A stretch of 64,000 nt of DNA, from the NCBI GenBank assembly GCA_963846985.1, contig CAWJYC010000012.1, positions 106,506 through 170,505 of the forward strand, given 5' to 3'. Shown here piece by piece: positions 4,601 to 54,621 of this stretch. Below the pieces are notes generated by a model that saw nothing but the letters and a program-made list of their open reading frames with translations, made no database searches and was not told the DNA's origin. Source of the DNA: an uncultured Actinomycetota bacterium (GTDB taxonomy: Bacteria > Actinomycetota > Actinomycetes > Mycobacteriales > Mycobacteriaceae). Numbering within the stretch: position 1 is the first letter of the stretch; each line of letters opens with the position of its first letter. The position numbers and the translations under genes were made by a program.

Positions 4601-4613
4601 CCAAGGGAGTGCG

Positions 4614-37437: not shown

Positions 37438-39213
37438 GTGTTGCGCAGTCATGCCGCCGGTTCGTTGCGGTCCACCGATGCCGGCCAGAAGGTCACATTG
37501 GCCGGTTGGGTGGCGCGTCGGCGTGATCATGGCGGGGTGATCTTCATCGACCTGCGCGACGCATCCGGGATCAGTCAGGTGGTGTTCCGCGATGCCGAGG
37601 TGCTGGCCCAGGCGCACCGGCTGCGGGCCGAATTCTGCATCGCCGTCGAGGGAATCGTGGAGGTCCGGCCCGAGGGCAACGCCAACACCGACATCCCCAC
37701 CGGTGACATCGAGGTCAACGCGTCGTCGCTGACCGTATTGAGCGAGAGTGCGCCGCTGCCCTTCCAACTCGACGAGACCCCGGGCGAGGAGGCCAGGCTC
37801 AAGTACCGCTATCTGGACTTGCGCCGCGAGGGTCCGGGCAACGCCCTTCGGCTGCGGTCTCGGGTGAACGCCGCGGCACGCGGCGTGCTGGCCGGCCACG
37901 ACTTCGTCGAGATCGAGACGCCGACGCTGACCAGGTCGACGCCCGAGGGAGCGCGGGACTTCCTGGTACCCGCGCGCCTGCAGCCGGGTTCGTTCTACGC
38001 GCTGCCGCAGAGCCCGCAGTTGTTCAAGCAGTTGCTGATGGTGGCGGGCATGGAGCGCTACTACCAGATCGCCCGCTGCTATCGAGACGAAGACTTCCGC
38101 GCCGACCGTCAGCCGGAGTTCACCCAGCTCGACATGGAGATGAGCTTCGTCGACGCCGATGACGTCATCGCGGTGTCCGAGGAGGTGCTCAAGGCCCTCT
38201 GGGCGCTCATCGGCCACGAGTTGCCGACGCCGATTCCACGCATCACCTACGACGAGGCGATGCGACGGTTCGGTTCCGACAAGCCCGACCTGCGTTTCGG
38301 AATCGAACTCATCGACTGCACGGAGTACTTCTCCCAGACCACCTTTCGCGTGTTTCAGGCACCGCACGTCGGCGCCGTCGTCATGCCGGGTGGTGCTTCG
38401 CAGCCGCGCCGCACGCTCGACGGCTGGCAGGAGTTCGCCAAGCAACGCGGGCACAGGGGGTTGGCGTACGTGCTCGTCGCCGAGGACGGCACACTGGGCG
38501 GCCCGGTCGCCAAGAACCTGACCGACGCGGAGCGCGACGGCCTCGCCGGCCACGTCGGCGCGGCCCCAGGAGATTGCATCTTCTTCGCGGCTGGCCCGGT
38601 GAAGTCGGCGCGAGCGCTGCTGGGCGCCACGCGCATCGAGATCGCCAAGCGGCTCGACATGATCGACCCGACGGCGTGGGCGTTCACCTGGGTGGTCGAC
38701 TGGCCGCTCTTCGAACCCGCCGACGACGCCACGGCGTCCGGTGACGTCGCCGTCGGATCGGGAGCGTGGACGGCCGTGCACCACGCGTTCACCTCACCCA
38801 AGCCCGAATCGGAGTCGACGTTCGACACCGATCCCGGCAGTGCGCTGGCCAACGCCTACGACATCGTCTGCAACGGCAACGAGATCGGCGGTGGGTCCAT
38901 CCGCATCCATCGTCGCGACGTCCAGGAACGGGTGTTCGCGATGATGGGCATCGATCATGACGAGGCTCAGGACAAGTTCGGATTCTTGTTGGATGCCTTC
39001 ACCTTTGGCGCGCCACCCCACGGCGGCATCGCCTTCGGCTGGGATCGCATCACGGCGCTGCTGGCCGGTACCGACTCCATTCGTGAGGTGATTGCGTTCC
39101 CGAAGTCGGGTGGCGGGGTGGACCCGCTGACCGACGCGCCTGCTCCGATCACCGCCCAGCAGCGCAAGGAATCGGGAATAGACGCCAAGCCGAAGGCCTT
39201 GACTGAGTCGTGA
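37438..39213 (+). CDS. aspS: Aspartate--tRNA ligase
   Basis: [44 protein letters not shown]. Confidence 0.98.
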
Positions 39214-39659
39214 GCGACATCGACAGAGGGAAACTGGTGGCCGACGCCGACGCGCTCGGGGACTTCAACAAGGCCATCGTGGACGAATTTCGCACCAACG
39301 GCGGCAAGGTGGGTGGACCGTTCGAGGGCGGCACGCTTCTGCTGCTGCACACGATCGGCGCCAAGTCGGGGCAGCCGCGACTGTCGCCGCTGGCTTACCT
39401 CACCGTCGACGGCAGAATGCTGATCGTCGGGTCATACGCCGGGGCCCCCAGGGATCCGGCCTGGGTGCACAACCTTCGGGCCAATCGGACGGCGCGCATC
39501 GAGGTGGGTACCGAGTCCTACGACGTCGACGTCCGGGAACTGCCCGACGACGAGCGCGAGGCGATCTACCCGAAGATCACCGAGGCCGCCCCGGTGTTCG
39601 CCGACTACCAGGCCAGGACCACCCGCTCGATCCCGCTCTTCGAGCTGACGCGCGCCTAG
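39210..39659 (+). CDS. Deazaflavin (F420)-dependent nitroreductase/quinone reductase family protein
   Basis: [40 protein letters not shown]. Confidence 0.9.
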
Positions 39660-39958
39660 CCCGATCCGGTCGGAGACGGCCGGGACGACATGCTGGAGTC
39701 GGGCGGCGGCGAGGTCTTCGGCGCGGTATCGGGCGGCGTCGTGCCCGCCGACGTGGTTGGCGCGATGCTGACTTCGTTGTCGTAGTCGTAGTCGTTGTCG
39801 TCGTCGTTGCTCTGCTTGTCGCTGGCGTAGCCGGCAAGCATTGCGATGGTGGCGGCGGCGGGGGACAGGGCCAGCAAGCCGAAACGGCCCGCGCGGTGGA
39901 GGGTGGTCACCGCCGAGGCACATCCCAGAAGTCGGTGAGCAAATCTCCTATGAGCCAC
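39656..39958 (-). pseudogene. Probable decayed Thr/Pro-rich lipoprotein
   Basis: Signal-like segment ending LAGY instead of LAGC; 11 Thr codons (39775-39807) lie out of frame. Confidence 0.45.
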
Positions 39959-40069
39959 TGGTGACGCGTGTTAGCTAAGCTAGTGGACCCCGAAGAAAAG
40001 CTTTACCCGATCTTGACCATGTGTTGAATCAGCTCACCGACGATAGCTAACGTGACTAGCCTTCACCTG

Positions 40070-40771
40070 GTGGAACTCGGGGTTTTGGGACCTCTTCAGG
40101 TCCGGCGGAACGGTGCGCCGGTCTTGATTCCGGGCGCCAAGCCACGTGCCATCCTGACGATGCTCGGGTTGCACGGTGGTGCTGTCGTGTCCGCGGAGAC
40201 GTTCTTCGAGTTGCTCTGGGGCGAGCATCCGCCCCGCACAGCTGCGAAGGCCCTGCAGACCCACATCTCGTCGCTGCGTCGAGTGTTGGGCGACGGGTTC
40301 GTTCTCACGAAGGGGGCGGGTTGGGCCCTGGCCGAGAGCGAGCTTGATGCGTCGCGTTACAGATCGGCCGCCCGACTGGGACGCGATGCCGCTGCCGCCG
40401 GTGACATCAGCCAGGCGGCGGCCTGCTTCGAGGAGGCACTTGCCCTGTGGCGAGGGGTCCCCGAACTGCCGGATGGCCGGCGCGGAACGTCGGAGAAGAC
40501 TAGATGGGTCGAGGGCCATGCCGCGCTGGTGGAGGATCGGGCCGATGCGCTGCTGGCAACGGGCCGCGCCGGAGAGCTGGTCGGAGACCTCGAGGCCGCG
40601 GTGGCCGATGCGCCGCTGCGCGAAAGGCGTTGGGGCCAGCTGATGCTCGCGCTGTACCGCGCCGGCAGACAGGGTGATGCTCTCAGCGCTTATCAACGGG
40701 CACGGACTTGTTGGCCGACGAATTGGGAGTCGATCCCGGGCCGGAGCTTCGTCGACTCGAGACGGCGATAG
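40070..40771 (+). CDS. N-terminal part of giant regulator: SARP/AfsR-type wHTH + BTAD (frameshifted at about 40708)
   Basis: MELGVLGPLQV, LQTHISSLRRVL, ALALWRG, PLRER.WGQLMLALYRAGRQ.DAL.AYQRAR; TAGCCT-N7-GTG suggests a leaderless start (ORF track uses 40052). Confidence 0.88.
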   Translation: MELGVLGPLQVRRNGAPVLIPGAKPRAILTMLGLHGGAVVSAETFFELLWGEHPPRTAAKALQTHISSLRRVLGDGFVLTKGAGWALAESELDASRYRSAARLGRDAAAAGDISQAAACFEEALALWRGVPELPDGRRGTSEKTRWVEGHAALVEDRADALLATGRAGELVGDLEAAVADAPLRERRWGQLMLALYRAGRQGDALSAYQRARTCWPTNWESIPGRSFVDSRRR

Positions 40772-43700
40772 TCGCACAGAGTGCCGAGTTGGAAGTCGTT
40801 GCAGCACAGAATGTTGCATCTGTGATGCGGGCGGTGACCTTTCTGCTCACCGACATCGAGGGCTCGACAGCCGCGTGGGAGGCAGAGCCCAATGTGATGG
40901 CGTCGGCACTGGCACGCCATGACGAACTGGTCGAACAGGTCGTTACGTCGCGGGCGGGACGGCTGATCAAGACGCGCGGCGAAGGCGATGCCACGTTCTC
41001 GGTGTTCGAGCGGCCGTCGGCGGCTGCCGCCGCAGCAATCGAGTTGCAAGACGCGGTCGCTCAGGAGCCGTGGACACTACGGGCGCCCATCCGTATCCGG
41101 GTGGCCTTGCACACCGGGGAGGTCGAGCTACGCGACGGTGACTACTTCGGTCGGGCGGTCAACCGCGCCGCCCGCCTGAGGTCGCTGGCCGTAGGCGGAC
41201 AGACTCTGTGCTCGGGCGCAACCGCCGAGCTCGTCATCGACTCACTACCCGAGCACGTCATGCTCGCCGATCTGGGGTTGCGTGAGTTGCGTAACCTCGC
41301 CCGTCCCGAACATGTCTTCGAGTTGCGACTGGCAACCGCTGAAGTCCACGCTCAACCGCCGACAAGCGATTCGCCGATCGAACGTCCCGGCCTGCCTACG
41401 GTTCTGATTGGTACGGGGCCGTTTGTCGGCCGCGGAAACGAGCTCGAGCGGCTCTACGCCGCCTGGCAGACCGCGCTCGGCGGTGGGACCCGCGCAGCGC
41501 TGATCGCGGGGGAGCCGGGCGTGGGCAAGACGCGTCTGGCGGGCGAATGGTCGCGACAGGCCTACGAACACGGTGCGGTCGTGCTCTACGGCCGTTGCGA
41601 CGAAGACCTGGGGGCGCCATATCAGCCCTTCGCCGAATCGCTGCGGTCACTGGTGCCGTGTGTGGGCACTAACCGGTTACGCGGTCTGCGCGGCGTCGAA
41701 GCCCTACTGTCCCTTGTCCCCGGGCTGACCGATGTCGTGCCTGATTTGGCTATGCCGACGCGGGCCGACCCGGACACCGAGCGCTACGCGTTTTTCGACG
41801 CTGTCGTTGCGCTGCTGGAAACGGCGTCCAAGGAAGTGCCGGTTGTCCTGGTGCTCGACGACCTGCACTGGGCGGCCAAACCAACGCTGCTGCTGTTGCG
41901 ACATCTGCTGCGCTTCGGCGAAAACGCCCGGTTGCAGATCGTCGGCACCTACCGCAGCACCGACCTCGATCGCTCCCACCCGCTGGCGGCGATGCTCGCC
42001 GACCTGCACCGCGACGGCACGTCCAGCCGTATCAATCTCAGCGGCCTGGATGAGGGCGACGTCACGGCGTACGTCGCCAAGGCCGGCTACGACGACGAAG
42101 AGCTCGGCCGCGCGTTGGCGTCTGTCACGGGCGGCAACCCGTTCTTTCTGATCGAGGCTCTGCGGCATGTCGACGAGAGCGGCGGCGTATGGGACCCGAG
42201 CACCCTGCCGCAGGGGGTGCGGGAAGCCGTGAGCCGCCGACTATCTCGCCTTCCAAACGAGACCAACAAAGCTCTTGCCGCAGCTGCCGTCGTCGGCAGC
42301 CGGTTTGCCCTAGACCTGGTCGAGCGGGTGGTCGGCGACGATTTGGTCGACGCGTTCGACGAGGCGGCCAAAGCCGGCATCGTCATCGAAGAGCCCGGCG
42401 GTTACTACCGCTTCAACCACGCGATCGTCCGCCAGTCGCTGCTTGCCGAACTACCTTCGGTGCGGCGCATGCGACTCCATCAGCGCATCGCGACAACGCT
42501 GGAGGCCGAACCCGGCGGCGACGAGCTCCTCGCTGAGCTGGCCCACCACTACTTCGAATGTGCCTGGGCTGGGAACGCGGCCAAGGCCGTCGAGTATTGC
42601 CGGCGTGCAGCCGACCAGGCGATGACACGACTCGCTTATGAAGGCGCCGCCGATCTTTACGGCCACGCTCTGCACGCGATGGACGAGCTTGACGAGGAGC
42701 TTCCTGACCGTGACGACCAGGTCGCCGACCTACTGGTGGCACGCTGCGAGGCTCTCCTGGCCGCGGGCGACGTGGCTTCGGCCGCGGGTACGGTCGCGCA
42801 ATTGCAACAGGCAACTGTCGACTCCGCGCGGCTGTCGGCGTGGGCGACCTGCTTCGACGGACAGCTGTCGATACTGGTCCATCCCGAGCGACTGGACGAC
42901 GTGGAAGCCGGGCTAGAAGCCGCCGCACACAAATTGGCCGAAATGGACGATGCCGCAGGGGAAGCGAAGGCACATACCGTCCGCGCCCAGTGCCTGGCAC
43001 GGCTCGGGCGAATTGGCGACTGCGAAATCGCGTTGGACGACGCTCTCACCGCGGCGCGGCGCGCGCGCGATCACCGCCGGGTCAACGCCGTGCTTGCCGG
43101 CGCACCGCTTGCGGCGCTCTGGGGTCCCAACCCGGTTCCGCGCGCGGGCGGACGATGCCTGGATGTCGTGCGGCTGTTGAGAATCACGACCGACTCGCCG
43201 GCGGTCGAAGCGACGTCGACGCGATGCCAGGCCGTGTTGGAGGCCTTCCGTGGCCGCGACGCGGCCGCCCGCCGGATGATCGACTCAGCTCGGCGGACGG
43301 TCACAGAACTCGGTCTGCGCCATGCGGTGCTGGAGGTCGAGCAGTTCGCCGGCATCGTCGAGCTGGTCTTGGACGACCCGGCTGCGGCCGAACCGCATCT
43401 GCGTAAGGCCTGCAACGGTTTTCGCCGGATGGGCCTGGATGCCGATACCGCCGAGACCGCTGCGTTACTAGGCCGCGCGTGCCTGGAGCTCAACCGGAAT
43501 TCCGAGGCGGACGAATTATGCACGGAGAGTGAGCGACTCGCAGGCAACGCGCTGAAGGCTTCGATTGCCTGGCGCACACTGCGGGCGCAATTGCTATCGC
43601 ATAGTAGTGACCACGTGGAGGCTCGGCGCGTCGCGCAGGCCGCCATTGCCCTAGCCGAGCGGACAGATGGATTGGTCGACCACGGCGACGCCTGCCTGTC

Positions 43701-46700
43701 ATTGGCAACGGTGCTGGGTGCGGCCGGTGACGCGGCCGGGGCGCGAGCCGCCGCGGAGCGGGCGGCGGGCTTGTACGAGCTGAAAGGTGCTGCGGCACTA
43801 GCCGAGCGGGCGCGCCGTGCGCTCGACGAACCCAGTATCACTTCTGGCCCCACGCCACCCGAACTACCGCCGGTTATCGAGCTCGACACTGCATGCGTAC
43901 GAGCGGGTGAACGCGTCGCGGTTGCTGTTAATCGAGGCGACTGGGACGAGTATGAGCGGCTCATTGCTCCCGGGGCTTCCCTCGAGAGTCGGCGGAAGAT
44001 CATCGGCTTCAAGCCGACCGACGTCCCCTTCGACGACTGGCAACGTCAGAACAGACGAATTCTCGAGACGGGTGAGACGCGGCTCGACTATATGTTTGTC
44101 GCTGTGCGAGGTGAGCGCCTCGCCTTGTCTCGATTGAAGGTGGGCACCGGCGATTCGAGCCCCGGTGCGCCAATCGACGAATTCCTCCAGGTGTACGGCA
44201 TCGACGAGGAGGGTCGGGTTGCGTTCCAGATCTGGTTCGATGTCGAAGACATGGACGCTGCAATCGCCGAGCTCGATGCCGTGCAGGCGCGATTCGAGGA
44301 ACAACGCTCACAAACGCGGTGCCTGGAGAACACGGCCACGCGCGTATTCGAGCGAGTCTGGTCGCAATTTGCGGCGGGTGACTGGAGTGCCTTGTCTGAA
44401 GCCGTATCCGAAAGTTACTCCGGCATCGATCACCGAAGGGTCGTCAACGCAGAGAACCAACATGGCCGAGACGCGGTGGTCAACGATCTGAAGGCCGCCG
44501 CCGATGTCGGCTTCACGATATCGATGGTGGGTGTCATTGCGGTTCGCGGCGAGCACCTCGCTCTCACACGTGTCCGTGCGTCGGGCCGCGATCCCGAGGC
44601 GATTCAAAACGATGCCCTCAACGTCATCGAGATCGATTCCGATGAAAGGATTCTGGCAGCCGTTACGTTCGATCTGGAGGACTTCGACGCCGCCATCGCG
44701 GAGCTCGAATGTTGTTATCTCACAGGCGAAGCTGCCGTCTACGCGCGCACCTGGTCTGTCGTTGCAGCTGCTTATGACGGTTTCAACCGGCGCGAGCCCC
44801 TGGCGACTGCGCCCGACTGGGTGAACATTGACCATCGGCGCGGCGCAGGTTTCGCCTCCGGCGACATGATGGCCTACGTCGAAGCGGCCTGGGAAGACTC
44901 GCCTGACACCAAGATCTACATCGGGGCGGTGCATCGGCTCAGCGATATCGGAGCGGTCGTCAGCCATGTGGCGCGCGGGATCTCTCAACAGGGCTTCGAC
45001 GGCGAATGGCGGGACGTCAATCTCTTGGCGATCGAGGGCGATGTGGTCAGCCGCTCCGAGCTGTTCAACGAGGCAGACCTCGACGCCGCGATCGCGAGAT
45101 TCGATCAGCTCAGCAGGCCGACGCCGCGGTTCGAAAACGCAGCAAGCCAGGTGGCTGACCGTTTTCAGGCACACTTCGCGGCGCGCGACTGGGCCGCCAT
45201 GGGAACGATTCTGGCTGACGAGTTTTCCAGTGACGATCGCCGTCGGGTGGTGGGCGCGGGAGTCCGCGATGGTCGACATGCCGAGATCGCGGACATGGCC
45301 GCAACCGCCGACCTGGGCATCTCGCACGTTAAGTCGACTGTCTTGGCCACCCGCGGGGATCGCCTCACACTTATGCGTGGCAGCTTCTCGGGCCGCGATC
45401 AAGGGCCCGGAGCATTTCACTCAGAGGCGCTCGGCATAGTCGAAATCGACCGCTCCGAGCGGATCATCGCATTTGTCACCTTCGACCTCGACGACATCGA
45501 CGCCGCCCACGCGGAGCTAGATGCCAGGTACTGCGCCGGGGAAGCGGCGCCGTATTCGCGCGTGTGGTCGGTCATCGTGGGGGCTTATGCCGCGCTCAAC
45601 CGGTGCGAAATGCCTTCGACGACCCCCGATTGGGTGAACATCGATCACCGGCGAGGTGCATCGTTCGCGCCCGGTGAACTGCCTGTGTTACTCGCCAACT
45701 GGAACCCGCCTGACCTGAGCTTTTCGATCGAGGCGGTGCATCGGCTGAACGAGCTCGGGGCGGTTTTCAGCTCCGTGTCGCACGAGACCTCCCAGGACGG
45801 CTTCGCAGCTGAGTGGCGGACAACCGATATTTTGACGGTCGACGGCAACATGGTTAACCGCTGCGAAATTTTTGAGGAGGCCGATCTAGACGCCGCGATC
45901 ACGACGTTCGATGAGCTGAGCCGGCCGGCACCGCGGTTGGAAAACACGGCAAGTCGCGTGTACGGACGCCTCCGGGCATACTTCGCGGCGCGCGACTGGG
46001 CCGCAATGGCGGCGATTCTCGCCGATGACAGTTCGATGAACGATCGTCGTCGGATCGTGGGCTCCGAGGTCCGTCGCGGCCAGGATGCCACGATGGCCGC
46101 ATGGCGGGCGATCGCCGAGGTAGGCGTAACGAAAACCACGTCAGTGGTCATCGCCGCCCGCGGGACGCGTCTTGCAATGTGTCGTACTCAGGCCTCGACA
46201 AGCGGTGGGTTGAACGCAAATGTGTTCCAGATCGTCGACATCGACGCCGACGAGCGGCTGCTGGCGGTGGTCACGTTCGACCTCGAAGACTTCGATGCTG
46301 CTATCGCGGAGCTCGACGCCCGATACCTGGCCGGCGAGGGCGGGGCTTACGCCCAAACGTGGTCGGCCCTCACCATGGCCTTCGCCGCGGTCAACAGACA
46401 CGAATTACCCAAGCTGACGCCCGGTTGGGTCAATATCGACCACCGACGCGGAGCAACTTTCGCGGCCGGTGACATGACCGCTTACATCCACGACTTATGG
46501 AACGACTCGCCGAACATCAATATGTACGTCCAGGTCGTGCATCGCCTAGACAGCCTTGGAGCAGTGATTACCCAAGCGGCGCATGGCACTTCACAACAAG
46601 GCTTCGAGGCCGAATGGCAGGAAAACTCGATTTTCATGTTCGACGGTGACCTAGTCAGCCGCTGCGAGCTCTTCGACGAGGAAGATCTAGACACCGCGAT

Positions 46701-49700
46701 CGCGACGTTCGATCAGCTTGGCGTCCCGGCACCGCAATTAGAAAACACGGCGAGCCGGGCCAACGCGCGCTACGTTGCCTGCTTTAATGCGCGCGACTGG
46801 GACACAATGGCTTCGATTCTGGCCGACGACTATTACAGCGACGACCGGCGTCGGATAACTGGCACCGGGACCCGCCGCGGTCGGGGTGCCGAGATCGAGA
46901 ACCTCCAAGTGCTTGCGGATTTTGGAACGACCGTGACGGTCGAAGTCATCGCGACTCGTGGCGACCGAATTATCGTCACGCGAACCCACGCCTCAACGAA
47001 CCAGCAGCATGGGTCCCATGCCGAGGCGCTCCTGCTCGTAGAGACCGATGTAGACGGCCGTTTCGCGGCGACCATCATGCTCGACGTCGAGGACATCGAG
47101 GCAGCCTTTGAAGAACTCGATGCCCGATACCGCACAGGCGAAGCCGCCGCGCACGCGCACACGTGGAGGGTAATCGCGGGTGTTTTCGTTGCGCACAATC
47201 GGCGCGAAGTCGCGGCGACGACACCAGATGTGGTGAGTATCGACCACCGCCGGGTGGCCGGATTTGCGCCCGGTGAAGGTTTCGAATACATCCGTGCCGG
47301 GTGGGAGCTGGACCAAAGCCTCAACATCTACATCGAGGCAGCGCATCGGGTGAACGACCTTGGCGCGGTTTTCACTTGGGCGGGACATGGAACCTCGCAC
47401 GAGGGCTTCGACGCCGAGTGGCGGGGTGTCACGCTGCTGACCGTCGACGGCGAAATGGTTTCCCGCATGGAAGTATTCGACGACACAGGTCTCGACTCCG
47501 CCATCGCGAGGTTCGATCAGCTCAGTCGCCCTGCACCGCAGTTGGAAAACGCAGCCTGCCAAATAGGTGACCGCTTCATGGCGCATTTCGCGGCGGGCGA
47601 TTGGGACGCCATGGCAGAAGTTCTGGCCTACAACGTGTCCAATGAAGACCGCCGTCGGGTTATCAGCACCGGAATCTTCGATGGTCGAGACGCCCAGGTG
47701 GCGAACGCGCGGGCGATGGCCGAGCTGTGGTCGAGAAATATGACGCGGGCCGTCTTGGCGACCCGCGGCAGGGACCTTTCCCTCGCACGTCTTACTTTGT
47801 CGGGCAACGGGGTCGAAGCCTTTCTTACCGAGTTTCTCGTCGTCATGGAGATCGATGCCGACGAGCGGATCACGGCTATTATTGTGTTCGATCTCGAAGA
47901 CATCGACGCCGCCATAGCGGAACTCGACGCCCGATACCTCGCTGGAGAAGCGGCCGCCCATTCAAGAGCTTGGTCGGCGATTGCAGGGGTATACGCCGCG
48001 CTCAATCGCGGTGAGATGGCCGCGACTGCAACAGACTTGGTAGACATCGACCATCGTTCACTCGAAGCGATCGGGTCTGGCGACCTTATGGCGTACCTCC
48101 GGGTTGCGTCGGAAGATGCGCCACGGAGCGGCATTTATATTGAGACTGTCCATCGGCTGACGGATCTCGGCGCGGTCACCACCCATGTGGCGAAGTCGAC
48201 GTCACGAGAAGGGTTCGACGCTGAATGGCGTATAACTAGCTTCTTCATAGTCGGCGGCGATCGAGTTAACCGCTACGAGTATTTCGACGAGGACGATCTT
48301 GAGGCCGCGCTCGCCGGCTTCGACGCACTACACCGGCAGACGCCGCGCCTCGAAAACACCGCGGCCCGAGCTTATGAGCGGTTGCAAGAGTGCTTCGCGG
48401 CCCGCGACTGGGACGCCCTGGCTGAAACACTGGCCAACGAAGCGTTTCACGACGACCGCCGCCGCGTGGTGGGCGGATTCCGCGAGGGCCGCCATGCCGT
48501 GGCCGCCGAATTCTCGGTGTTCGCCGAGATCGGCGTCAAGCGCATTACTTTCGACCCCATTGCCATCCGGGGCAGCAGCCTGGTCCTGAGCCGTTCGCGG
48601 GCCTCCGGTCGTGACCGGCGAGCCGACGCCTTCCGCACCGATGTCCTCAGTATCGCCGAGATCGACGCCACCGAGCGGATCAAGGCGCTCATCACTTTCG
48701 ACCCCGACGACTTCGACGCCGCCTTCGAGGAGCTCGAAAAGCGCTATCTCGCCAGTGAAGCCGCTGCCCACGCGCACGTCTGGTCCGTCATCGCCAGTGG
48801 CTTCGGAGCGCTGAGGCGGAGCGAGCTACCGCTGACCACGCCCGAGTGCGTAAGTATCGACCACCGACGGACAGCCGCGTTCGCGCCAGGTGAGCTGAAC
48901 GCCTATACCCGTGCCGCGTTCGACCTCACGGCAGATCACAGTATCTACGTCGAGGCGGTGCACCGCCTGAACGACGGCGGCGCGGTTTGCACTCATGTCA
49001 CACATGGGGTTTCACACGAAGGCTTCGCCGCGGAGTGGCGGGAGGTCGATATTTTGATGGTCGAGGGCGACATCGTCGGCCGCTGTGAACTTTTTGAGGA
49101 AGCTGACTTTGATGATGCGGTCGCAAAGTTCGAAGAGCTCAGTCTGCCAACGCGGCGGCTAGAGAACGCGGCAAGCCGAGTGGCCGAAATCTATTGGAAG
49201 TACTTCGGCACCCGCCAGTGGGGTGTGATGGCGGATATCATCGCCAGCAATTTCGTCAGCGACGATCGTCGGCGCGTGGTAGGCGCGGGTAGCCAACACG
49301 GCCTTGAAGCCACGATCGAAGACATGCGGGTCCTCGCTGACATCTGGTTCGAGAACGTCGCCGCGACCGTCATTGCGATCCGTGGGCAGCGTCTCGCCCT
49401 TATGCGAATCGGCATTTCAAGCGGCGAGCACGGGCCGGAGTCGTTCGTGACAGAGGTGCTTGCTGTAGGGGAGATCGACGCTGACGAGCGGCTCGTAGCG
49501 GGAATTTCTTTCGACCTCGACGATATCGACGCCGCCCTCGAGGAACTCGACGCGCGATACATTGCAGGCGAGTCGGCAGGCCCCGCCCGCATTTGGTCGG
49601 TCGTCGCGTCCTCCTACGCCGCGTTCAACCGGCACGAAGTCCCGGCGGCGGACTGGGTCACAATCGACCACCGGCGAAGTACTCCGTTCGAGCCCAGCAA

Positions 49701-51579
49701 TATGACCCCGTCCATCCGCACCATTTGGGACCTCACGCCAAACCTCAGCATCCATATCGAGGCGGTTCATCGGCTCGACAGCTTTGGAGCGGTCATAACC
49801 CATGAGGGCCATGGGACCTCTCACGACGGCTTCGACGCCGAGTGGCGGGCGGTGGACATCCTGATGGTGAACGGCGACCGGATAACCGGCTGCGAACTAT
49901 TCGACGAGGCAGACCTCGACGCCGCGCTCGCCCGCTTTGAAGAGCTGCATCCACGGCCCGGGCGGCTGGAGAACGCCGCAAGCCAAGCGGCCGACCGCTT
50001 CTTTTCGCACTTGGCGGCTCGGGAGTGGGCGGCGATGGCCGAGATCCTGGTCGAGGACAGTTTTAGCGACGATCGTCGTCGTGTCGTGAATGCCGGGCTA
50101 TGGCACGGTCGCGATGTTGTGATTACAGCACTGCGCGATACCACCGCTTTCGGGGTTCTTATCGGAGTTTCAACGGTCATCGCAACCAGAGGGCGCCGAC
50201 TCGCCCTCGGCAGTGTGCGATGGTCGGCCAACGACCAAGGCGCAGACGCGTTTCAGAGCGAGGCGCTGTGCATTAGCGAGATCGAAAGCGACGAACGGCT
50301 CACCGCGATCATTATTTTCGAGCCGGACGACAACGAGGGTGCCATCGCTGAGCTCGATGCTCGCTACCTCGCCGGCGAAGCCGCCGCCGACGCGCATACA
50401 TGGTCGCTGGTTGCGAACGCTTACGCCGCGTTCATCAGGCACGAATTACCTGAGCTGAGCTCCGACTGGGTCAACGTCGATCACCGGCGTGGCGCAGCGT
50501 TCGCGGGCGGCGAGATGACCGCCTACCTCCAGGACTTGTTTGACGACGTGCCCGATATCCATGTCTACGCCGAAGTCGTGCATCGCCTGGGCAATCTCGG
50601 AGCCGTCGTCAGCCAGACTGGGCATGGCACGTCGCAGATGGGCTTCCAGGCCGAATGGCGGGAGATCGTGATTTTCGTGTTTGACGGCGATCTGCTCAGC
50701 CGTTACGAAATCTTCGACGAGGCGGACCTCGACGCCGCCCTCGCGCGGTCCGACGAGCTGCAATCGCGGCCGCCACGGCTGGAAAACGCGGTAAGTCAAG
50801 TGGATCAACGGTTTTGGACGCAGTTCGCAGCCCGCGACTGGGACGGGATAGCGGAGCTTCTCGCCGACGACATATTGACAGAAGATCGTCGGCGGGTGGT
50901 GAATGCCGGGGTCCGGCATGGTCGAGATAGCCACATCGCGGAGGTGCGATCTGTCGCCGAGGTGGGCGTCGAGAATGTCACGTCGACCATCGTCGCGACC
51001 CGTGGCTCGCGGCTCGTACTGACTCGTATCAGCGGCTCCAACCGCGAAGTTGGGGCCGGTGAACTCAGTGCCGAGGTGCTCAACATTGTTGAAATTGACG
51101 CCCAACGACGGATTTCGGGCCGCGTCGGGTTCGACACCGACGACATCGCTGCCGCCTTCGAGGAACTCGACGCTCGATACCTTGCAGGAGAAGCGAAGCC
51201 GTACGCGAAAACCTGGACGGCAGTCGCTGGAGCCTATGTGGCGTTCAATCGACACGAAATCCCTGCCGCGCCTGATTGGGTGAACGTCGACCATCGGCGA
51301 GGGACAACAGTTGGACCTGGCGACATGGCCGCCAATATCCAGGCCACGTGGGACGTCGCGCCAAACATCAGGCGATCAATCGAGGCCGTCCACCGGTTGG
51401 ACAACCTAGGCGCGGTCGTCACGCATACGGCGCAGGGGACGTCGCGAGAGGGCTTTGATGCTGAGTGGCGGCTGGTCGCACTTTTGACGTTCGAAGACGA
51501 CCTAATCAGCCGCGCCGAGCTCTTCGATGAAGCAGACCTCGACGCCGCGCTCGCCCGCTTCGATGAACTACGCGCGTAG
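40708..51579 (+). CDS. Giant multidomain protein: BTAD end, class III cyclase, STAND AAA ATPase, helical/TPR region, 19 SnoaL/NTF2-like domains
   Basis: LADELGVDPGPEL; TFLLTDIEGST/GEGD/DYFGRAVNRAARL; FVGR, GEPGVGKT (41509), VLVLDDLHWA (41845), GGNPFF; repeats from 43879. Confidence 0.92.
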   Translation: MLADELGVDPGPELRRLETAIVAQSAELEVVAAQNVASVMRAVTFLLTDIEGSTAAWEAEPNVMASALARHDELVEQVVTSRAGRLIKTRGEGDATFSVFERPSAAAAAAIELQDAVAQEPWTLRAPIRIRVALHTGEVELRDGDYFGRAVNRAARLRSLAVGGQTLCSGATAELVIDSLPEHVMLADLGLRELRNLARPEHVFELRLATAEVHAQPPTSDSPIERPGLPTVLIGTGPFVGRGNELERLYAAWQTALGGGTRAALIAGEPGVGKTRLAGEWSRQAYEHGAVVLYGRCDEDLGAPYQPFAESLRSLVPCVGTNRLRGLRGVEALLSLVPGLTDVVPDLAMPTRADPDTERYAFFDAVVALLETASKEVPVVLVLDDLHWAAKPTLLLLRHLLRFGENARLQIVGTYRSTDLDRSHPLAAMLADLHRDGTSSRINLSGLDEGDVTAYVAKAGYDDEELGRALASVTGGNPFFLIEALRHVDESGGVWDPSTLPQGVREAVSRRLSRLPNETNKALAAAAVVGSRFALDLVERVVGDDLVDAFDEAAKAGIVIEEPGGYYRFNHAIVRQSLLAELPSVRRMRLHQRIATTLEAEPGGDELLAELAHHYFECAWAGNAAKAVEYCRRAADQAMTRLAYEGAADLYGHALHAMDELDEELPDRDDQVADLLVARCEALLAAGDVASAAGTVAQLQQATVDSARLSAWATCFDGQLSILVHPERLDDVEAGLEAAAHKLAEMDDAAGEAKAHTVRAQCLARLGRIGDCEIALDDALTAARRARDHRRVNAVLAGAPLAALWGPNPVPRAGGRCLDVVRLLRITTDSPAVEATSTRCQAVLEAFRGRDAAARRMIDSARRTVTELGLRHAVLEVEQFAGIVELVLDDPAAAEPHLRKACNGFRRMGLDADTAETAALLGRACLELNRNSEADELCTESERLAGNALKASIAWRTLRAQLLSHSSDHVEARRVAQAAIALAERTDGLVDHGDACLSLATVLGAAGDAAGARAAAERAAGLYELKGAAALAERARRALDEPSITSGPTPPELPPVIELDTACVRAGERVAVAVNRGDWDEYERLIAPGASLESRRKIIGFKPTDVPFDDWQRQNRRILETGETRLDYMFVAVRGERLALSRLKVGTGDSSPGAPIDEFLQVYGIDEEGRVAFQIWFDVEDMDAAIAELDAVQARFEEQRSQTRCLENTATRVFERVWSQFAAGDWSALSEAVSESYSGIDHRRVVNAENQHGRDAVVNDLKAAADVGFTISMVGVIAVRGEHLALTRVRASGRDPEAIQNDALNVIEIDSDERILAAVTFDLEDFDAAIAELECCYLTGEAAVYARTWSVVAAAYDGFNRREPLATAPDWVNIDHRRGAGFASGDMMAYVEAAWEDSPDTKIYIGAVHRLSDIGAVVSHVARGISQQGFDGEWRDVNLLAIEGDVVSRSELFNEADLDAAIARFDQLSRPTPRFENAASQVADRFQAHFAARDWAAMGTILADEFSSDDRRRVVGAGVRDGRHAEIADMAATADLGISHVKSTVLATRGDRLTLMRGSFSGRDQGPGAFHSEALGIVEIDRSERIIAFVTFDLDDIDAAHAELDARYCAGEAAPYSRVWSVIVGAYAALNRCEMPSTTPDWVNIDHRRGASFAPGELPVLLANWNPPDLSFSIEAVHRLNELGAVFSSVSHETSQDGFAAEWRTTDILTVDGNMVNRCEIFEEADLDAAITTFDELSRPAPRLENTASRVYGRLRAYFAARDWAAMAAILADDSSMNDRRRIVGSEVRRGQDATMAAWRAIAEVGVTKTTSVVIAARGTRLAMCRTQASTSGGLNANVFQIVDIDADERLLAVVTFDLEDFDAAIAELDARYLAGEGGAYAQTWSALTMAFAAVNRHELPKLTPGWVNIDHRRGATFAAGDMTAYIHDLWNDSPNINMYVQVVHRLDSLGAVITQAAHGTSQQGFEAEWQENSIFMFDGDLVSRCELFDEEDLDTAIATFDQLGVPAPQLENTASRANARYVACFNARDWDTMASILADDYYSDDRRRITGTGTRRGRGAEIENLQVLADFGTTVTVEVIATRGDRIIVTRTHASTNQQHGSHAEALLLVETDVDGRFAATIMLDVEDIEAAFEELDARYRTGEAAAHAHTWRVIAGVFVAHNRREVAATTPDVVSIDHRRVAGFAPGEGFEYIRAGWELDQSLNIYIEAAHRVNDLGAVFTWAGHGTSHEGFDAEWRGVTLLTVDGEMVSRMEVFDDTGLDSAIARFDQLSRPAPQLENAACQIGDRFMAHFAAGDWDAMAEVLAYNVSNEDRRRVISTGIFDGRDAQVANARAMAELWSRNMTRAVLATRGRDLSLARLTLSGNGVEAFLTEFLVVMEIDADERITAIIVFDLEDIDAAIAELDARYLAGEAAAHSRAWSAIAGVYAALNRGEMAATATDLVDIDHRSLEAIGSGDLMAYLRVASEDAPRSGIYIETVHRLTDLGAVTTHVAKSTSREGFDAEWRITSFFIVGGDRVNRYEYFDEDDLEAALAGFDALHRQTPRLENTAARAYERLQECFAARDWDALAETLANEAFHDDRRRVVGGFREGRHAVAAEFSVFAEIGVKRITFDPIAIRGSSLVLSRSRASGRDRRADAFRTDVLSIAEIDATERIKALITFDPDDFDAAFEELEKRYLASEAAAHAHVWSVIASGFGALRRSELPLTTPECVSIDHRRTAAFAPGELNAYTRAAFDLTADHSIYVEAVHRLNDGGAVCTHVTHGVSHEGFAAEWREVDILMVEGDIVGRCELFEEADFDDAVAKFEELSLPTRRLENAASRVAEIYWKYFGTRQWGVMADIIASNFVSDDRRRVVGAGSQHGLEATIEDMRVLADIWFENVAATVIAIRGQRLALMRIGISSGEHGPESFVTEVLAVGEIDADERLVAGISFDLDDIDAALEELDARYIAGESAGPARIWSVVASSYAAFNRHEVPAADWVTIDHRRSTPFEPSNMTPSIRTIWDLTPNLSIHIEAVHRLDSFGAVITHEGHGTSHDGFDAEWRAVDILMVNGDRITGCELFDEADLDAALARFEELHPRPGRLENAASQAADRFFSHLAAREWAAMAEILVEDSFSDDRRRVVNAGLWHGRDVVITALRDTTAFGVLIGVSTVIATRGRRLALGSVRWSANDQGADAFQSEALCISEIESDERLTAIIIFEPDDNEGAIAELDARYLAGEAAADAHTWSLVANAYAAFIRHELPELSSDWVNVDHRRGAAFAGGEMTAYLQDLFDDVPDIHVYAEVVHRLGNLGAVVSQTGHGTSQMGFQAEWREIVIFVFDGDLLSRYEIFDEADLDAALARSDELQSRPPRLENAVSQVDQRFWTQFAARDWDGIAELLADDILTEDRRRVVNAGVRHGRDSHIAEVRSVAEVGVENVTSTIVATRGSRLVLTRISGSNREVGAGELSAEVLNIVEIDAQRRISGRVGFDTDDIAAAFEELDARYLAGEAKPYAKTWTAVAGAYVAFNRHEIPAAPDWVNVDHRRGTTVGPGDMAANIQATWDVAPNIRRSIEAVHRLDNLGAVVTHTAQGTSREGFDAEWRLVALLTFEDDLISRAELFDEADLDAALARFDELRA
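43879..51576 (+). repeat. Intragenic array: one lone domain + nine ~801-813-nt A+B SnoaL-like units
   Basis: Unit starts (EN[T/A]) at 44326, 45133, 45940, 46741, 47545, 48352, 49162, 49969, 50782; recurring RDW, DRRR, ELDARY.AGE, IDHRR, VHRL, GF.AEWR, FDE.DLDAA. Confidence 0.93.
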
Positions 51580-51835: not shown

Positions 51836-53032
51836 TCACAGCCGTTCGATGATGGTGGCGTTCGCCATGCCGCCGCCCTCGCACATCGTCTGCAACGCGA
51901 AGCGTCCGTCCCGCTGCTCGAGCGCGTTGACCATGGTCGTCATGATGCGGGCGCCGCTGGCGCCGAGCGGGTGACCGATGGCGATGGCGCCTCCGTTGAC
52001 GTTGGTCTTGGCAAGGTCGGCTCCGGTATCGCGCGCCCATGCCAGCACGACCGGCGCGAAGGCCTCGTTCACCTCGAACAGGTCGATGTCGGCCAGCGTC
52101 AGTCCCGCGCGGGCGAGCACCTTTTCGGTCGCCGGAATGACGCCGGTCAGCATGTAGAGCGGGTCGGACCCGACCACCGTCATGGTGTGAATGCGGGCCA
52201 GCGGCCGCAGTCCCAGTCGGCGGGCGGCGGCGCCACTCGTGATCATCACCGCGGCGCTGCCGTCCGACAGCGGCGAGGAATTGCCGGGCGTAATCTCCCA
52301 ATTGATTTGGGGGAAGCGGGCCGCGTAGGCCTCGTTGAAGAACGCGGGCCGCAGGCCGGCGAGGGTGTCGACCGTCGTACCCGGGCGGACGATCTCGTCG
52401 GTCGACAAGCCGGCGATCGGCGCCAACTCGTTGTCGAACAGACCCTCCTTGGTGGCGCGGGCGGCCTTCTCGTGGCTGTTGGCGGAGAATTCGTCGAGTT
52501 CGGTGCGCGACAGACCCCACTTGGCGGCGATCAATTCGGCGCTGATGCCCTGGGGAACAAGCCCTTCGGAGTAGCGCTGTGCGAACGCCCTACCGAAGGG
52601 ATCGCTTCCCGGAAGTACGGAGCTGCCCATCGGCACCCGGGACATCGACTCGACGCCGGATGCGATCACGATGTCGTAGGAGCCAGCCAAGACGCCTTGA
52701 GCCGCGAAACTGATTGCCTGCTGGCTACTTCCGCACTGGCGGTCGACGGTGGTGCCGGGCACGCTCTCGGGGAATCCAGCGCCGAGCAACGCGTTGCGGG
52801 CGATGTTCACGGATTGGTCGCCCACCTGGGTGACCGCGCCCGCAATCACGTCGTCGACCGTGCCCGGGTCGATCCCGGTGCGTTCGACGACCTCGCGCAG
52901 ACTGTGGGCCAGCAGGTCGGCAGGCAGAATGTCGTGCAGGGCTCCGTTGGCCTTGCCCTTGCCGACCGGGGTGCGGACGGCGGCGACGATGACGGCATCG
53001 CGATCGGAATACTGGGCCTTCGAAGCGGACAT
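51836..53032 (-). CDS. Thiolase (acetyl-CoA C-acyltransferase)
   Basis: RQCGSSQQA, NEAF, GHPLGASG, MCEGGG. Confidence 0.95.
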   Translation of the reverse strand: MSASKAQYSDRDAVIVAAVRTPVGKGKANGALHDILPADLLAHSLREVVERTGIDPGTVDDVIAGAVTQVGDQSVNIARNALLGAGFPESVPGTTVDRQCGSSQQAISFAAQGVLAGSYDIVIASGVESMSRVPMGSSVLPGSDPFGRAFAQRYSEGLVPQGISAELIAAKWGLSRTELDEFSANSHEKAARATKEGLFDNELAPIAGLSTDEIVRPGTTVDTLAGLRPAFFNEAYAARFPQINWEITPGNSSPLSDGSAAVMITSGAAARRLGLRPLARIHTMTVVGSDPLYMLTGVIPATEKVLARAGLTLADIDLFEVNEAFAPVVLAWARDTGADLAKTNVNGGAIAIGHPLGASGARIMTTMVNALEQRDGRFALQTMCEGGGMANATIIERL

Positions 53033-53121: not shown

Positions 53122-53628
53122 GTGATGTACATGACAGTCCTGCAAGGGCCGCTCGCCGATCGCGACTCGTGGTCGGCGGCAGGCCGCTGCCCCATCGAGA
53201 AGACGATGGGTCTGGTGGGCACCAAGTCGGCGATGCTGATCATGCGGGAGGCCTACTACGGCACCACGCGCTTCGACGACTTCGCCCGCCGGGTCGCCAT
53301 CACCAAGGCCGCCACCTCCGCCCGGCTCTCGGAACTGGTCGACGCCGGACTGCTGACCAAGCAGCCCTACCGCGAGCCGGGTCAGCGCAGCCGCGACGAG
53401 TACGTCCTCACCGAGCAGGGCACCGCGTTCATGCCCGTCGTGTGGGCGATGTTCGAGTGGGGCAGGGGCTACTTCGACGACATTCCGCTGCGACTGTCAC
53501 ATCTCGACTGCGGCGCCGAGGCGACCGTCGAAATCCGTTGCGCCGCAGGTCATGACGTACCGCCCGACGAGTTGGCGGTCCGGGTGGCCCGGCCCGCCAG
53601 GGTTTCGGGTGGCGAGCGCAGGGGATAA
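53122..53628 (+). CDS. HxlR-family winged-helix regulator
   Basis: CPIEKTMGLVG.K, GTTRFDDF, RLSELVDAG, EYVLT..G; start may be 53131. Confidence 0.88.
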   Translation: MMYMTVLQGPLADRDSWSAAGRCPIEKTMGLVGTKSAMLIMREAYYGTTRFDDFARRVAITKAATSARLSELVDAGLLTKQPYREPGQRSRDEYVLTEQGTAFMPVVWAMFEWGRGYFDDIPLRLSHLDCGAEATVEIRCAAGHDVPPDELAVRVARPARVSGGERRG

Positions 53629-53637
53629 CGTGCGCCT

Positions 53638-54567
53638 GTGCTGCACTTGCGTGTCATCGCGCCCGAGGACCTCCGCGACGAGGTGATCGCCACCTTGCGC
53701 GATGAGGTCGGTGTGGCGAATCTCCTCTTCTATCCCGGCGCCGCCCTCGACCCGGCCGGCGACGAGATCACCGCCGACGTCGCCCGCGAATGTGCGAACG
53801 ACCTGATCCGACGGCTCAAGGCCCTCGACGTGCAGCACCGCGGCGCCATCACGCTGGAAGTCCTCGACACCGTCCTGTCGACCCGGGCCCACCGCGCCGA
53901 GGACGCGGCGCACGGCGATCCGGCCGACGCCCTGCTGTGGGACGAGCTGATCGGTCGCACCCGCGAGGAGTCGACCCTATCCGTCACCTTCGTGACGTTC
54001 CTGACCCTGGCCTGTCTGATCGCCGCCATCGGTGCGCTGACCGACTCGACGGTCACAGTCGTCGGCGCCATGGTTCTGGGCCCAGAGTTCGGTCCGCTCG
54101 CGGCGGTGGCGGTGGCGATCGTCCAGAGGAGCTGGGGCCTGGCGCGACGCGCACTGCTGGCCCTGGCCGTCGGCTTCCCGGTGGCGATGGCCATCACGGC
54201 GATCGCGACGCTGGCGGGGCACGCCCTCGGCTGGGTGGATCTCGAGACCATCCGCCGGGTCAAGGCGGTGGACTTCATCTTTCAGGTCGGACCCGTGTCC
54301 CTCGTCGTCGCGCTGCTGGCCGGCGCCGCCGGCATGCTGTCGCTGGTCTCCGCCAAGTCCGCCGCGCTGGTCGGCGTCTTCATCTCCGTCACCACCGTGC
54401 CCGCAGCCGGATTCGCCGTCGTGGCGGCGATCCTGGGGGATTGGGACGTGGCCGCCAGGTCGGCCATCCAACTGGTGGTGAACCTGGTCGGCATCGTGGT
54501 GGCGGGCATCGTCGTGCTGGTGTTGCGGCGGCGCAGCAAGCTGATTCCCCGGTTCGCCCAGACCTGA
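53638..54567 (+). CDS. DUF389-like membrane protein
   Basis: VVGAMVLGPEFGP, LVGVFISVTTVPAA; multi-TM. Confidence 0.85.
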   Translation: MLHLRVIAPEDLRDEVIATLRDEVGVANLLFYPGAALDPAGDEITADVARECANDLIRRLKALDVQHRGAITLEVLDTVLSTRAHRAEDAAHGDPADALLWDELIGRTREESTLSVTFVTFLTLACLIAAIGALTDSTVTVVGAMVLGPEFGPLAAVAVAIVQRSWGLARRALLALAVGFPVAMAITAIATLAGHALGWVDLETIRRVKAVDFIFQVGPVSLVVALLAGAAGMLSLVSAKSAALVGVFISVTTVPAAGFAVVAAILGDWDVAARSAIQLVVNLVGIVVAGIVVLVLRRRSKLIPRFAQT

Positions 54568-54621
54568 GCCGGGCCCCTTCGACGGTGCACCCCCCGGCCG
54601 GGTGTGGTGGGATCAACGCCT

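Follow-up and report, generated by a model that had tools for sequence, protein, structure and literature searches.

A giant mycobacterial gene predicted to encode a STAND-type receptor with an array of NTF2-like domains

We analyzed a 64,000-nt stretch of DNA (hereafter, the window) from an uncultured bacterium of the Mycobacteriaceae (assembly GCA_963846985.1, contig CAWJYC010000012.1, positions 106,506 to 170,505), in which a giant gene occupies positions 40052-51579 of the forward strand. The predicted protein combines a SARP regulator module, a class III nucleotidyl cyclase, a STAND ATPase, a TPR-like arm and an array of 19 NTF2/SnoaL-like domains. We propose, with a probability of roughly 0.55, that this one gene encodes a cytoplasmic, single-protein STAND receptor of the NLR/MalT/AfsR type, with diversified predicted pockets and with cyclic AMP (cAMP) and transcription as its outputs. 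The generic STAND part of this proposal is much likelier than the specific ligand idea.

Known STAND/NLR switches carry solenoid sensors (LRR, WD40 or TPR) that read proteins, or they read a single ligand. The predicted sensor described here is a chain of complete ligand-cone domains, in which cavities, not surfaces, diversify, and the number of these domains varies approximately eight-fold between species whose cores are ~85% identical. If the cavities bind ligands, then a single bacterial protein could monitor many related small molecules in a way that is new, and the array might offer biosensor design a ready-made scaffold with natural variants of a pocket. The gene occurs in about half of the Mycobacterium species sampled, including the M. 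intracellulare and M. scrofulaceum groups, and is predicted to feed into cAMP, a central signal of mycobacterial physiology.

Domain architecture of the predicted protein

The gene is built of two overlapping forward-strand open reading frames (ORFs), namely 40052-40771 (239 aa) and, in the next frame, 40708-51579 (3,623 aa). In Pfam searches of their translations, all parts of the core scored above the respective cut-offs. Trans_reg_C was matched with 33.8 bits (cut-off 26.2) at residues 30-81 of the 239-aa ORF, and BTAD with 104.7 bits directly after this winged helix-turn-helix (wHTH); the BTAD domain is broken by a 1-nt frame break at 40707 and resumes in the large ORF. These are followed by Guanylate_cyc (35 bits, cut-off 21.9), AAA_16 (102.3 bits, cut-off 32.6, large-ORF residues 238-411) and TPR_12 (33.3 bits, cut-off 30.1, three stretches within residues 560-1060), and SnoaL_2 was matched in the array with 90 bits over five stretches. 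An initial annotation of the window, made from the sequence alone, had read the architecture as SARP-cyclase-STAND-TPR and had expected Trans_reg_C, BTAD, Guanylate_cyc, AAA_16 and SnoaL_2 in the respective segments, and the Pfam results bear out both statements. They also agree with the order of effector, NTPase and sensor that it had assigned, given that the SARP module and the cyclase lie N-terminal, and TPR_12 and the NTF2 array C-terminal, of the NTPase.

In sequence searches of the PDB, the SARP part aligned with AfsR (8hvr, 8k60) and EmbR (2fez) at E ~1e-28, and the cyclase with Ma1120, Rv1900c/LipJ and GRESAG4 (E 1e-11 to 5e-18). The STAND and TPR part gave no match to PDB sequences with phmmer; its translation contains the STAND motifs, that is, the Walker A motif GEPGVGKT, the Walker B motif VLVLDDLHW, and GGNP. 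Regulators of the SARP family activate transcription by binding direct heptamer repeats near -35. We also searched the flanking intergenic regions for short direct or inverted repeats that might form a SARP-box, and none of those seen was convincing. In the cyclase domain, the first metal-binding Asp (TDIEGS), a Lys (IKT), an Asp (GDYFG), and the Asn and Arg of VNRAAR are all kept and are invariant among orthologues, which points to ATP as the probable substrate.

The BTAD domain loses its sense in the first ORF past ...AYQRAR, and the large ORF opens with LLADELGVDPGPEL, which is the normal BTAD continuation. The frame shifts at 40705-40709 (gcacggac/ttgttg), where the window reads ACTTG and the closest public DNA reads ACTTTG. 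The extra T after 40707 was found in both of the public-run contigs compared, one of them near-identical to the window (3 mismatches in 569 nt) and the other more distant. When a T is restored after 40707, 3,842 codons are open without a stop, very close to the ~3,840 aa that the initial annotation had given after a one-base repair; the frameshift that it had described is present in the window and absent from the closest public DNA. The 10.9 kb of the large ORF contain no further stop and no second shift. Given that this downstream sequence is free of other lesions and that the nearest DNA has the T, we attribute the missing base either to a slip of the assembly within a short run of T or to a mutation that is very recent and specific to the strain; the source genome is a draft, 70% complete. 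Public sequencing runs other than the near-identical one held only small shares of the stretch, and no conclusion on habitat was drawn from them.

Fold of the array domains

Using hidden Markov models (HMMs) of our own, we divided the part from residue 1058 to the C-terminus into 19 domains of ~135 aa, ten of which are of the A type and nine of the B type. The array opens with a lone and more divergent A-type domain (A0), followed by nine A+B pairs that are mutually 43-53% identical. Tandem Repeats Finder reported no DNA-level tandem repeats in the array; the units are too diverged for a recent amplification. A search for further copies of the repeat in the same genome (the 70%-complete draft) also gave none.

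We then modeled one pair with AlphaFold2. A first model, for which the alignment consisted of the nine own units only, was poor (pLDDT 60.6) and was replaced. The accepted model, that of pair 2 with an alignment of 120 diverse units, showed a pLDDT of 94.4 and a predicted template modeling score (pTM) of 0.91, and the latter suggests a rigid two-domain body. Foldseek comparison of the whole pair with the PDB returned Lsd19 and MonBI-MonBII, epoxide hydrolases that are built of two cones, at E ~1e-11 with a template modeling (TM) score of 0.40, a value indicating that the cone-to-cone orientation in the modeled pair differs from that in Lsd19 and MonB. Single domains matched ketosteroid isomerase (KSI) with a TM score of 0.74 and a root-mean-square deviation of 2.6 Å, and limonene epoxide hydrolase (LEH) and many NTF2-like proteins were matched as well. 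In addition, both halves of the unit sequence profile matched NTF2/SnoaL proteins in the PDB (E 3e-6 at best), and the identity of the units to their structural relatives is 9-19%. Judging from the model, the repeats are NTF2/SnoaL-like cones, with a match far beyond chance. Thus, the array of 19 SnoaL/NTF2 domains in the initial annotation was recovered as ten A and nine B domains, and the A+B unit is NTF2-like in the modeled structure also.

Variation on the cavity side of the cones

To locate the variation within the units, we calculated column entropies from 883 non-redundant Mycobacterium units and performed mean-field direct coupling analysis (DCA) on 1,215 units. The nearly invariant positions of the A domain are E12, N13, W31, D46-R-R-R, G58-R59, A83, R85-G86, L89, L91, R93, E115 and F128-D129, and those of the B domain are W156, N167-R168, D182-H183-R184, H216-R217, G222, E240-W241-R242, R256, E258 and F260; the linker helix (ELDARYLAGEAA) is nearly invariant as well. 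Hypervariable columns follow a spacing of i/i+2 on strands and of i/i+3-4 on helices; in the A domain they include columns 19, 23, 42, 44, 62, 66, 69, 92, 94, 96, 108, 110, 112, 125 and 127. Almost all of the top 200 couplings (196) fall inside one domain, and the couplings between helices and strands pick one face of the strands in 24 of 25 cases in the A domain (beta1 5/5, beta3 7/8, beta4 7/7, beta5 5/5) and in 23 of 24 cases in the B domain (beta2 7/8, beta3 10/10, beta4 6/6). The helices of an NTF2 cone pack against the concave side of its curved antiparallel sheet. Therefore, the coupled strand face was taken to be the cavity side.

The entropy on this cavity side averages 2.74 bits for the A domain and 2.11 bits for the B domain, versus 1.24 and 1.28 bits, respectively, on the outer face. 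Several cavity-side columns, among them 19, 23, 107, 112 and 125, accept charged and polar residues and range from Gly to Trp. The outer face bears paired charges (R93, R95, E109, E115, E240, R242, R256 and E258) and is presumably frozen by the interfaces within and between A/B pairs. On these alignments, the conservation of the predicted cones is inside-out, the reverse of that in an ordinary globular domain, and the hypervariable cavity side fits what diversified pockets would predict. We also considered a LEH-like catalytic triad formed by the conserved E/R pairs of the B domain, and this idea was dropped when strand parity placed the pairs on the outer face.

On the cavity side, each domain type has two invariant residues, namely D46 and R48 in the A domain and D182 and R184 in the B domain; the Asp is interior by strand parity. 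In the unit profile, this Asp, which belongs to a D-[DH]-R-R motif, aligns with the Asp of the EDP motif that is catalytic in MonB. Given that each cavity has this Asp/Arg, the predicted pockets would be variations on one theme and not unrelated to each other. The initial annotation had proposed a sensor made of a library of pockets. Such a sensor agrees well with a fast-evolving array whose variation lies on the cavity side and whose outer faces are invariant; the shared Asp/Arg modifies the proposal, in that the library would have one common theme.

Distribution of the family

Next, we searched 1.84 billion representative proteins with the unit profile. The unit was matched in 2,957 of them, with E ≤ 1e-30 in 994 cases; many of these proteins have a length of 2,000-5,200 aa, and as many as 15 stretches were matched in one protein. 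When the first 1,060 aa served as the query and the targets were proteins of 1,992-6,341 aa, 828 matches were obtained, the best 120 of which are 82-90% identical to the query over the 1,060 aa and carry PF00486, PF03704, PF00211, PF13191 and PF12680 in a single polypeptide. The named relatives among these 120 all belong to Mycobacterium (M. cookii, M. kyorinense, M. branderi, M. noviomagense, M. paraense, M. heidelbergense, M. triplex, M. scrofulaceum, M. intracellulare, M. timonense, M. fragae and M. paraseoulense). In the databases, these 120 relatives are labelled 'BTAD domain-containing putative transcriptional regulator', 'class 3 adenylate cyclase' or 'hypothetical protein'; homologues lacking a specific annotation, as suspected at the outset, therefore exist. 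The sequences indicate that the intact, fused form is the norm in Mycobacterium. The relative with the top core identity (90%, 3,111 aa) has no SARP Pfam domains listed, with 95% query coverage, and its sequence may be split or cut short where the window gene is broken.

Within the genus, the array was found in 94 of 201 genomes (73 of 150 when only high-quality genomes are counted). Some Mycobacterium genomes have two or three separate giant array genes (three in genome G184, two in G171), and from these multiple loci it appears that the family also expands by duplication or acquisition of the whole gene. Among 401 Actinomycetota genomes, the array occurs in only two families. The second consists of uncultured Solirubrobacterales soil bacteria with genomes of ~3 Mb and often two loci per genome, in which a double zinc ribbon takes the N-terminal place that the SARP has in Mycobacterium. 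In all ten distant array proteins tested, the cyclase is followed by AAA_16, and the relatives share an array start of 'HEL A A B A B'. Array proteins that looked as though they had no core proved to be truncated arrays. From this comparison of sequences, the syntax of the family is cyclase-STAND-TPR-array, to which the SARP is an addition of the Mycobacterium branch; the SARP-bearing architecture of the initial annotation is thus a trait of that branch and not of the family as a whole.

Evolution of the array relative to the core

Against seven relatives, the identity of the core is 80-98% per 100-aa bin up to residue ~1000, with the TPR residues 800-900 as the most conserved (95-98%), and it falls to 35-80% once the array begins. 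Relatives with ~85%-identical cores carry 2-17 full A/B pairs. The unit-to-unit best matches in relatives are non-collinear and typically 50-80% identical; over the 120 relatives the best unit match has a median of 55%, and the best anywhere is 65-80%. Clustering of 961 units from 121 Mycobacterium proteins gave 557 clusters at 70% identity; at 60%, the number was 185. The median identity of a unit to its closest counterpart in a different protein is 74%, versus 56% to its closest paralogue within its own protein, where a twin above 80% exists for only 0.4% of units. Given that units in other proteins are nearer than paralogues in the same protein, the unit types are older than the species. 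As far as these alignments tell, units have been gained, lost and reshuffled to give mosaic arrays, and signs of recent tandem amplification or of concerted evolution were not seen.

We also compared the gene with the closest relative for which DNA was available. The synonymous divergence (dS) of the core is ~0.65, with a ratio of nonsynonymous to synonymous divergence (dN/dS) of ~0.10. Units of equal dS (0.54-0.64), which for that reason are plausibly orthologous, showed dN/dS values of 0.22-0.39. These values, being below 0.4, suggest that the array is not junk; on the aligned sequences it is under purifying selection and two to four times freer than the core.

Proposed mechanism

The switch mechanism proposed here is modeled on the STAND proteins MalT, AfsR, Apaf-1 and the NLRs. 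In the resting state, the array and the TPR arm would hold the ATPase closed, and the invariant outer faces would fix the cones as a scaffold. The ligands bound by the variable cavities would be small molecules of one class, mostly hydrophobic (lipid, steroid or polyketide-like) and with a polar group in common. This group would be read by the Asp/Arg, whereas the variable walls would read the differing hydrophobic bodies. Occupancy of the cavities might lift the autoinhibition via the TPR arm, upon which the NTPase would swap ADP for ATP and oligomerise. Class III cyclases are obligate dimers with active sites at the interface. Oligomerisation would pair the cyclase domains, leading to cAMP, and would cluster the SARP domains on DNA, leading to activation of transcription.

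A bolder version of this proposal, which we put forward only tentatively, is that these proteins form an unrecognised class of NLR-like receptors in mycobacteria and Solirubrobacterales. In it, a combinatorial library of up to ~35 NTF2 pockets on an invariant scaffold, each tuned to one member of a chemical class, would give a species-specific repertoire that is read out as cAMP and transcription. If this is true, it would be a small-molecule counterpart of repeat-based innate immune recognition.

Several observations weigh against the receptor proposal. The gene is split by a frameshift in this assembly. The Pfam score of the cyclase is modest (35 bits), and although its first Asp, its Asn and its Arg are in place, as the initial annotation had stated in calling the motifs intact, the second metal site is not typical; it reads K-T-R-G-E-G-D with a two-residue insertion, in which the Glu or the Asp could serve. 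The open pockets are inferred from conservation and covariation alone, and DCA sees variable columns only. A hydrophobic core that is plastic could produce this pattern in part, and the invariant Asp/Arg could be a buried structural salt bridge or a catalytic residue. Finally, the GC content at third codon positions (GC3), which is well under that of the neighbours, and a location that varies by species would also fit an accessory or conflict gene.

Alternative explanations

The strongest alternative, which we nevertheless regard as unlikely, is an NLR-like conflict or anti-phage sensor, in which the array would recognise foreign proteins or phage-made molecules, the cyclase would produce an alarm signal as in Pycsar or CBASS, and the SARP would induce the response. 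A conserved core with a hypervariable C-terminal repeat array is what such a sensor would look like, and the patchy occurrence within the genus and in only two actinobacterial families, the several loci in some genomes and the low GC3 point the same way. So does the setting of the gene: the neighbourhoods of three relatives and of the window gene all differ, and two of the relatives' loci adjoin toxin-type genes (HipA, and a faint zeta-toxin-like match). Cyclic nucleotide (cNMP) cyclases are, moreover, frequent effectors of STAND-type conflict systems (PMC7159879). However, no PADLOC-DB family matched residues 1-1060 or the A/B unit at E ≤ 0.01, the SARP giving only weak matches to TPR models, and no gene for a cNMP-dependent effector adjoins the window gene, whose neighbours are of the housekeeping or metabolic kind (aspartyl-tRNA synthetase (AspRS), F420H2 quinone reductase, thiolase). 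The variable residues face the interior of the cones and not surfaces suited to the recognition of proteins. An identical 2,467-aa protein is present on at least 24 M. intracellulare-type contigs, so that the protein is stable within a species, and the average dN/dS stays below 0.4; both disfavour a conflict sensor. A survey of homologues had been suggested with the initial annotation, and it gave the 2-17 full pairs mentioned above and these differing neighbourhoods. Among the three relatives and the window compared, there was no conserved neighbour gene, which suggests that the protein is self-contained.

Somewhat less probable still is that the array is a structural scaffold, a spacer or an oligomerisation device, and that the input comes via the TPR arm or via phosphorylation as in AfsR. 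NTF2-like domains are known as hubs, such as the association domain of CaMKII, and as intramolecular regulators, such as the SnoaL_2 extensions of ECF41 and ECF56. On both cones, the outer face hardly varies and bears many paired charges, as would be expected of fixed interfaces, and the rigidity suggested for the A/B pair by its pTM and the position of the most conserved segment in the TPR region are also in keeping with a scaffold. A regulatory precedent for a SnoaL_2 C-terminal extension comes from the ECF56 sigma factor SigG1 (PMC7730460). However, a scaffold leaves unexplained why the cavity side is the most variable and co-evolving part, why the 961 units are spread over 557 clusters at 70% identity, near-identical twins within one protein being almost absent, and why every cone has an Asp/Arg at the position of the enzyme Asp.

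For this particular strain, it is also improbable that the gene is a fresh pseudogene, or that it is a split gene giving a free SARP and a cyclase-STAND-array protein from an internal start codon. One T is absent and the SARP is truncated after 239 aa, the remaining genes of the window are intact, so that the assembly is not generally error-ridden, and the 90%-identical relative is likewise listed without SARP Pfam domains. However, the downstream frame of 10.9 kb has neither a stop nor a second shift, the nearest public DNA has the T, and a short T run in a 70%-complete draft is a typical site of base-calling or assembly slips.

Least probable is that the cones are SnoaL-, epoxide hydrolase- or isomerase-like enzymes, in which case the protein would be a catalyst with many active sites, or a sink that takes up reactive lipids or epoxides, with a coupling to signalling. 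The closest structures in the PDB are indeed two-domain epoxide hydrolases (Lsd19, MonBI-MonBII), together with LEH and KSI, and the invariant Asp aligns with their catalytic Asp. However, that Asp is the only catalytic residue seen to align, the similarity is weak in sequence (E 3e-6 at best, 9-19% identity) and the two-domain orientation is unlike that of Lsd19, 19-35 active sites fused to a STAND switch would be without precedent, and variable active-site walls are atypical for a one-substrate enzyme.

Comparison with known systems

Among known proteins, the large Streptomyces SARP AfsR (PDB 8hvr, 8k60, 8jke) shares the N-terminal OmpR-type wHTH and BTAD, followed by a STAND ATPase and TPR. 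Unlike the window protein, it lacks a cyclase between these two parts, SARP and ATPase, and stops at the TPR, without an NTF2 array. A precedent for a mycobacterial protein that combines cAMP with transcription is given by M. tuberculosis Rv0386, Rv1358 and Rv2488c, which the literature treats side by side and which we take to consist of a class III cyclase, an AAA_16/STAND ATPase, a helical region and a C-terminal LuxR-type HTH. Set side by side by architecture, these have a C-terminal HTH and no NTF2 array, whereas the window protein has an N-terminal SARP and a C-terminal array.

The NLR/STAND immune receptors (Avs, bNACHT and fungal HET-E-type proteins), with their variable LRR, WD40 or TPR sensor repeats, have the same order of effector, NTPase and repeats, with a conserved switch and a fast-evolving, copy-variable repeat sensor. 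Their repeat is a solenoid repeat of 24-45 aa, whereas that of the window family is a complete ligand-cone domain of 135 aa, with its variability inside each domain and not on a solvent-exposed surface. The units of the window family are also old and dissimilar (~50% identity), without concerted evolution. Lsd19, MonBI-MonBII, KSI and LEH have the same cone fold, Lsd19 and MonB also as a tandem of two cones, and the Asp is aligned. However, they are free-standing enzymes of one or two domains, whereas the window family has 5-35 domains on a signalling ATPase. The ECF41 and ECF56 sigma factors resemble the window protein in carrying a SnoaL_2-type domain, regulatory and not catalytic, on an actinobacterial transcription regulator, and differ from it in having a single intramolecular domain without STAND ATPase, cyclase or array.

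We also observed that residues 124-792 (window ~41077-43083) align with the NCBIfam model TIGR03903, the TOMM system kinase/cyclase fusion, at E 1.7e-37 and with 129 bits versus a cut-off of 706. The likeness covers the cyclase-AAA_16-TPR stretch; the window protein lacks the kinase and the TOMM context, and the TOMM protein lacks the NTF2 array. This points to a broader clade of predicted cyclase-STAND proteins that differ in their sensor and effector ends.

Full-text literature searches found no functional study of this architecture, in keeping with the lack of a functional description noted in the initial annotation. They also found no description of an NTF2-cone array as the C-terminal arm of a STAND protein, or of its evolution. 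A 2004 survey of actinobacterial cyclases (PMC2447327), for which the literature index gives two occurrences of the word BTAD, may possibly mention a BTAD-cyclase fusion. The eLife 2020 survey of conflict systems names NTF2 once, in another context. Thus, the parts are known singly, as SARP-STAND-TPR, as cyclase-ATPase-HTH and as the SnoaL_2 extension, and what appears to be new is the NTF2-cone array as a STAND arm, together with its evolution.

Base composition and genomic setting

The coordinates of all parts of the gene are given in Table 1. The GC3 is 0.76 in the core and 0.72 in the array (40708-51576), versus 0.86 in the AspRS, thiolase and DUF2126 genes (37438-39213, 51836-53032 and 54604-58059), and the overall GC content goes down to 0.61-0.63 across the array. 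The low GC3 suggests that the gene is accessory or was moved horizontally, or that codon selection on it is weak.

Table 1. Parts of the giant gene, in window coordinates; residue numbers are those of the large ORF unless frame 1 is given
Feature	Positions	Strand	Basis
SARP module, wHTH (~residues 30-81) and most of BTAD, frame 1	40052..40707	+	Pfam, PDB matches
Frame break, one T of a short T run absent	40705..40709	+	Public contig comparison
BTAD end (LLADELGVDPGPELRRLE...) and linker, frame of large ORF	40708..40827	+	Translation
Class III nucleotidyl cyclase, residues ~41-215	40828..41352	+	Pfam Guanylate_cyc, PDB matches
STAND NTPase (AAA_16 / NB-ARC-like)	41419..42387	+	Pfam AAA_16 (residues 238-411), motifs
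Helical / TPR-like arm, residues ~561-1050	42388..43857	+	Pfam TPR_12, three stretches
A0, lone divergent A-type NTF2-like domain opening the array	43879..44292	+	A-type HMM, 57.8 bits, residues 1058-1190; AB profile E 2.5e-20
A/B pair 1, residues 1196-1464	44293..45099	+	Own HMMs
A/B pair 2, residues 1465-1733, unit modeled	45100..45906	+	Own HMMs, AlphaFold2, Foldseek
A/B pair 3, residues 1734-2000	45907..46707	+	Own HMMs
A/B pair 4, residues 2001-2268; best Pfam SnoaL_2 stretch 2021-2096	46708..47511	+	Own HMMs, Pfam
A/B pair 5, residues 2269-2537	47512..48318	+	Own HMMs
A/B pair 6, residues 2538-2807	48319..49128	+	Own HMMs
A/B pair 7, residues 2808-3076	49129..49935	+	Own HMMs
A/B pair 8, residues 3077-3348	49936..50751	+	Own HMMs
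A/B pair 9, residues 3349-3623, stop codon 51577-51579	50752..51579	+	Own HMMs, translation

The gene is flanked by the AspRS gene (37438-39213), a gene for a DUF389 membrane protein and a gene for a 1,151-aa transglutaminase/DUF2126 protein (within 53638-58059). These flanks resemble what we take to be the aspS (Rv2572c) to Rv2566 region of M. tuberculosis. Based on this likeness, the giant gene may have been inserted, together with a thiolase gene (51836-53032, reverse strand) and an HxlR regulator gene (53122-53628), into a block of genes that is conserved.

Directly upstream of the giant gene lies a gene for an F420H2-dependent quinone reductase (PF04075; 39210-39659, forward strand). A quinone reductase gene also occurs ~3 kb upstream of the M. 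intracellulare relative (4388-4819 of its contig), where the rest of the neighbourhood is different. This recurrence may be a coincidence, given that mycobacteria have many such genes. A reverse-strand ORF of 163 aa (39432-39923) overlaps the end of the quinone reductase gene; it has no Pfam match and is probably not a gene, and it holds degenerate 16-nt direct repeats (TCGTTGTCGTAGTCGT, three copies).

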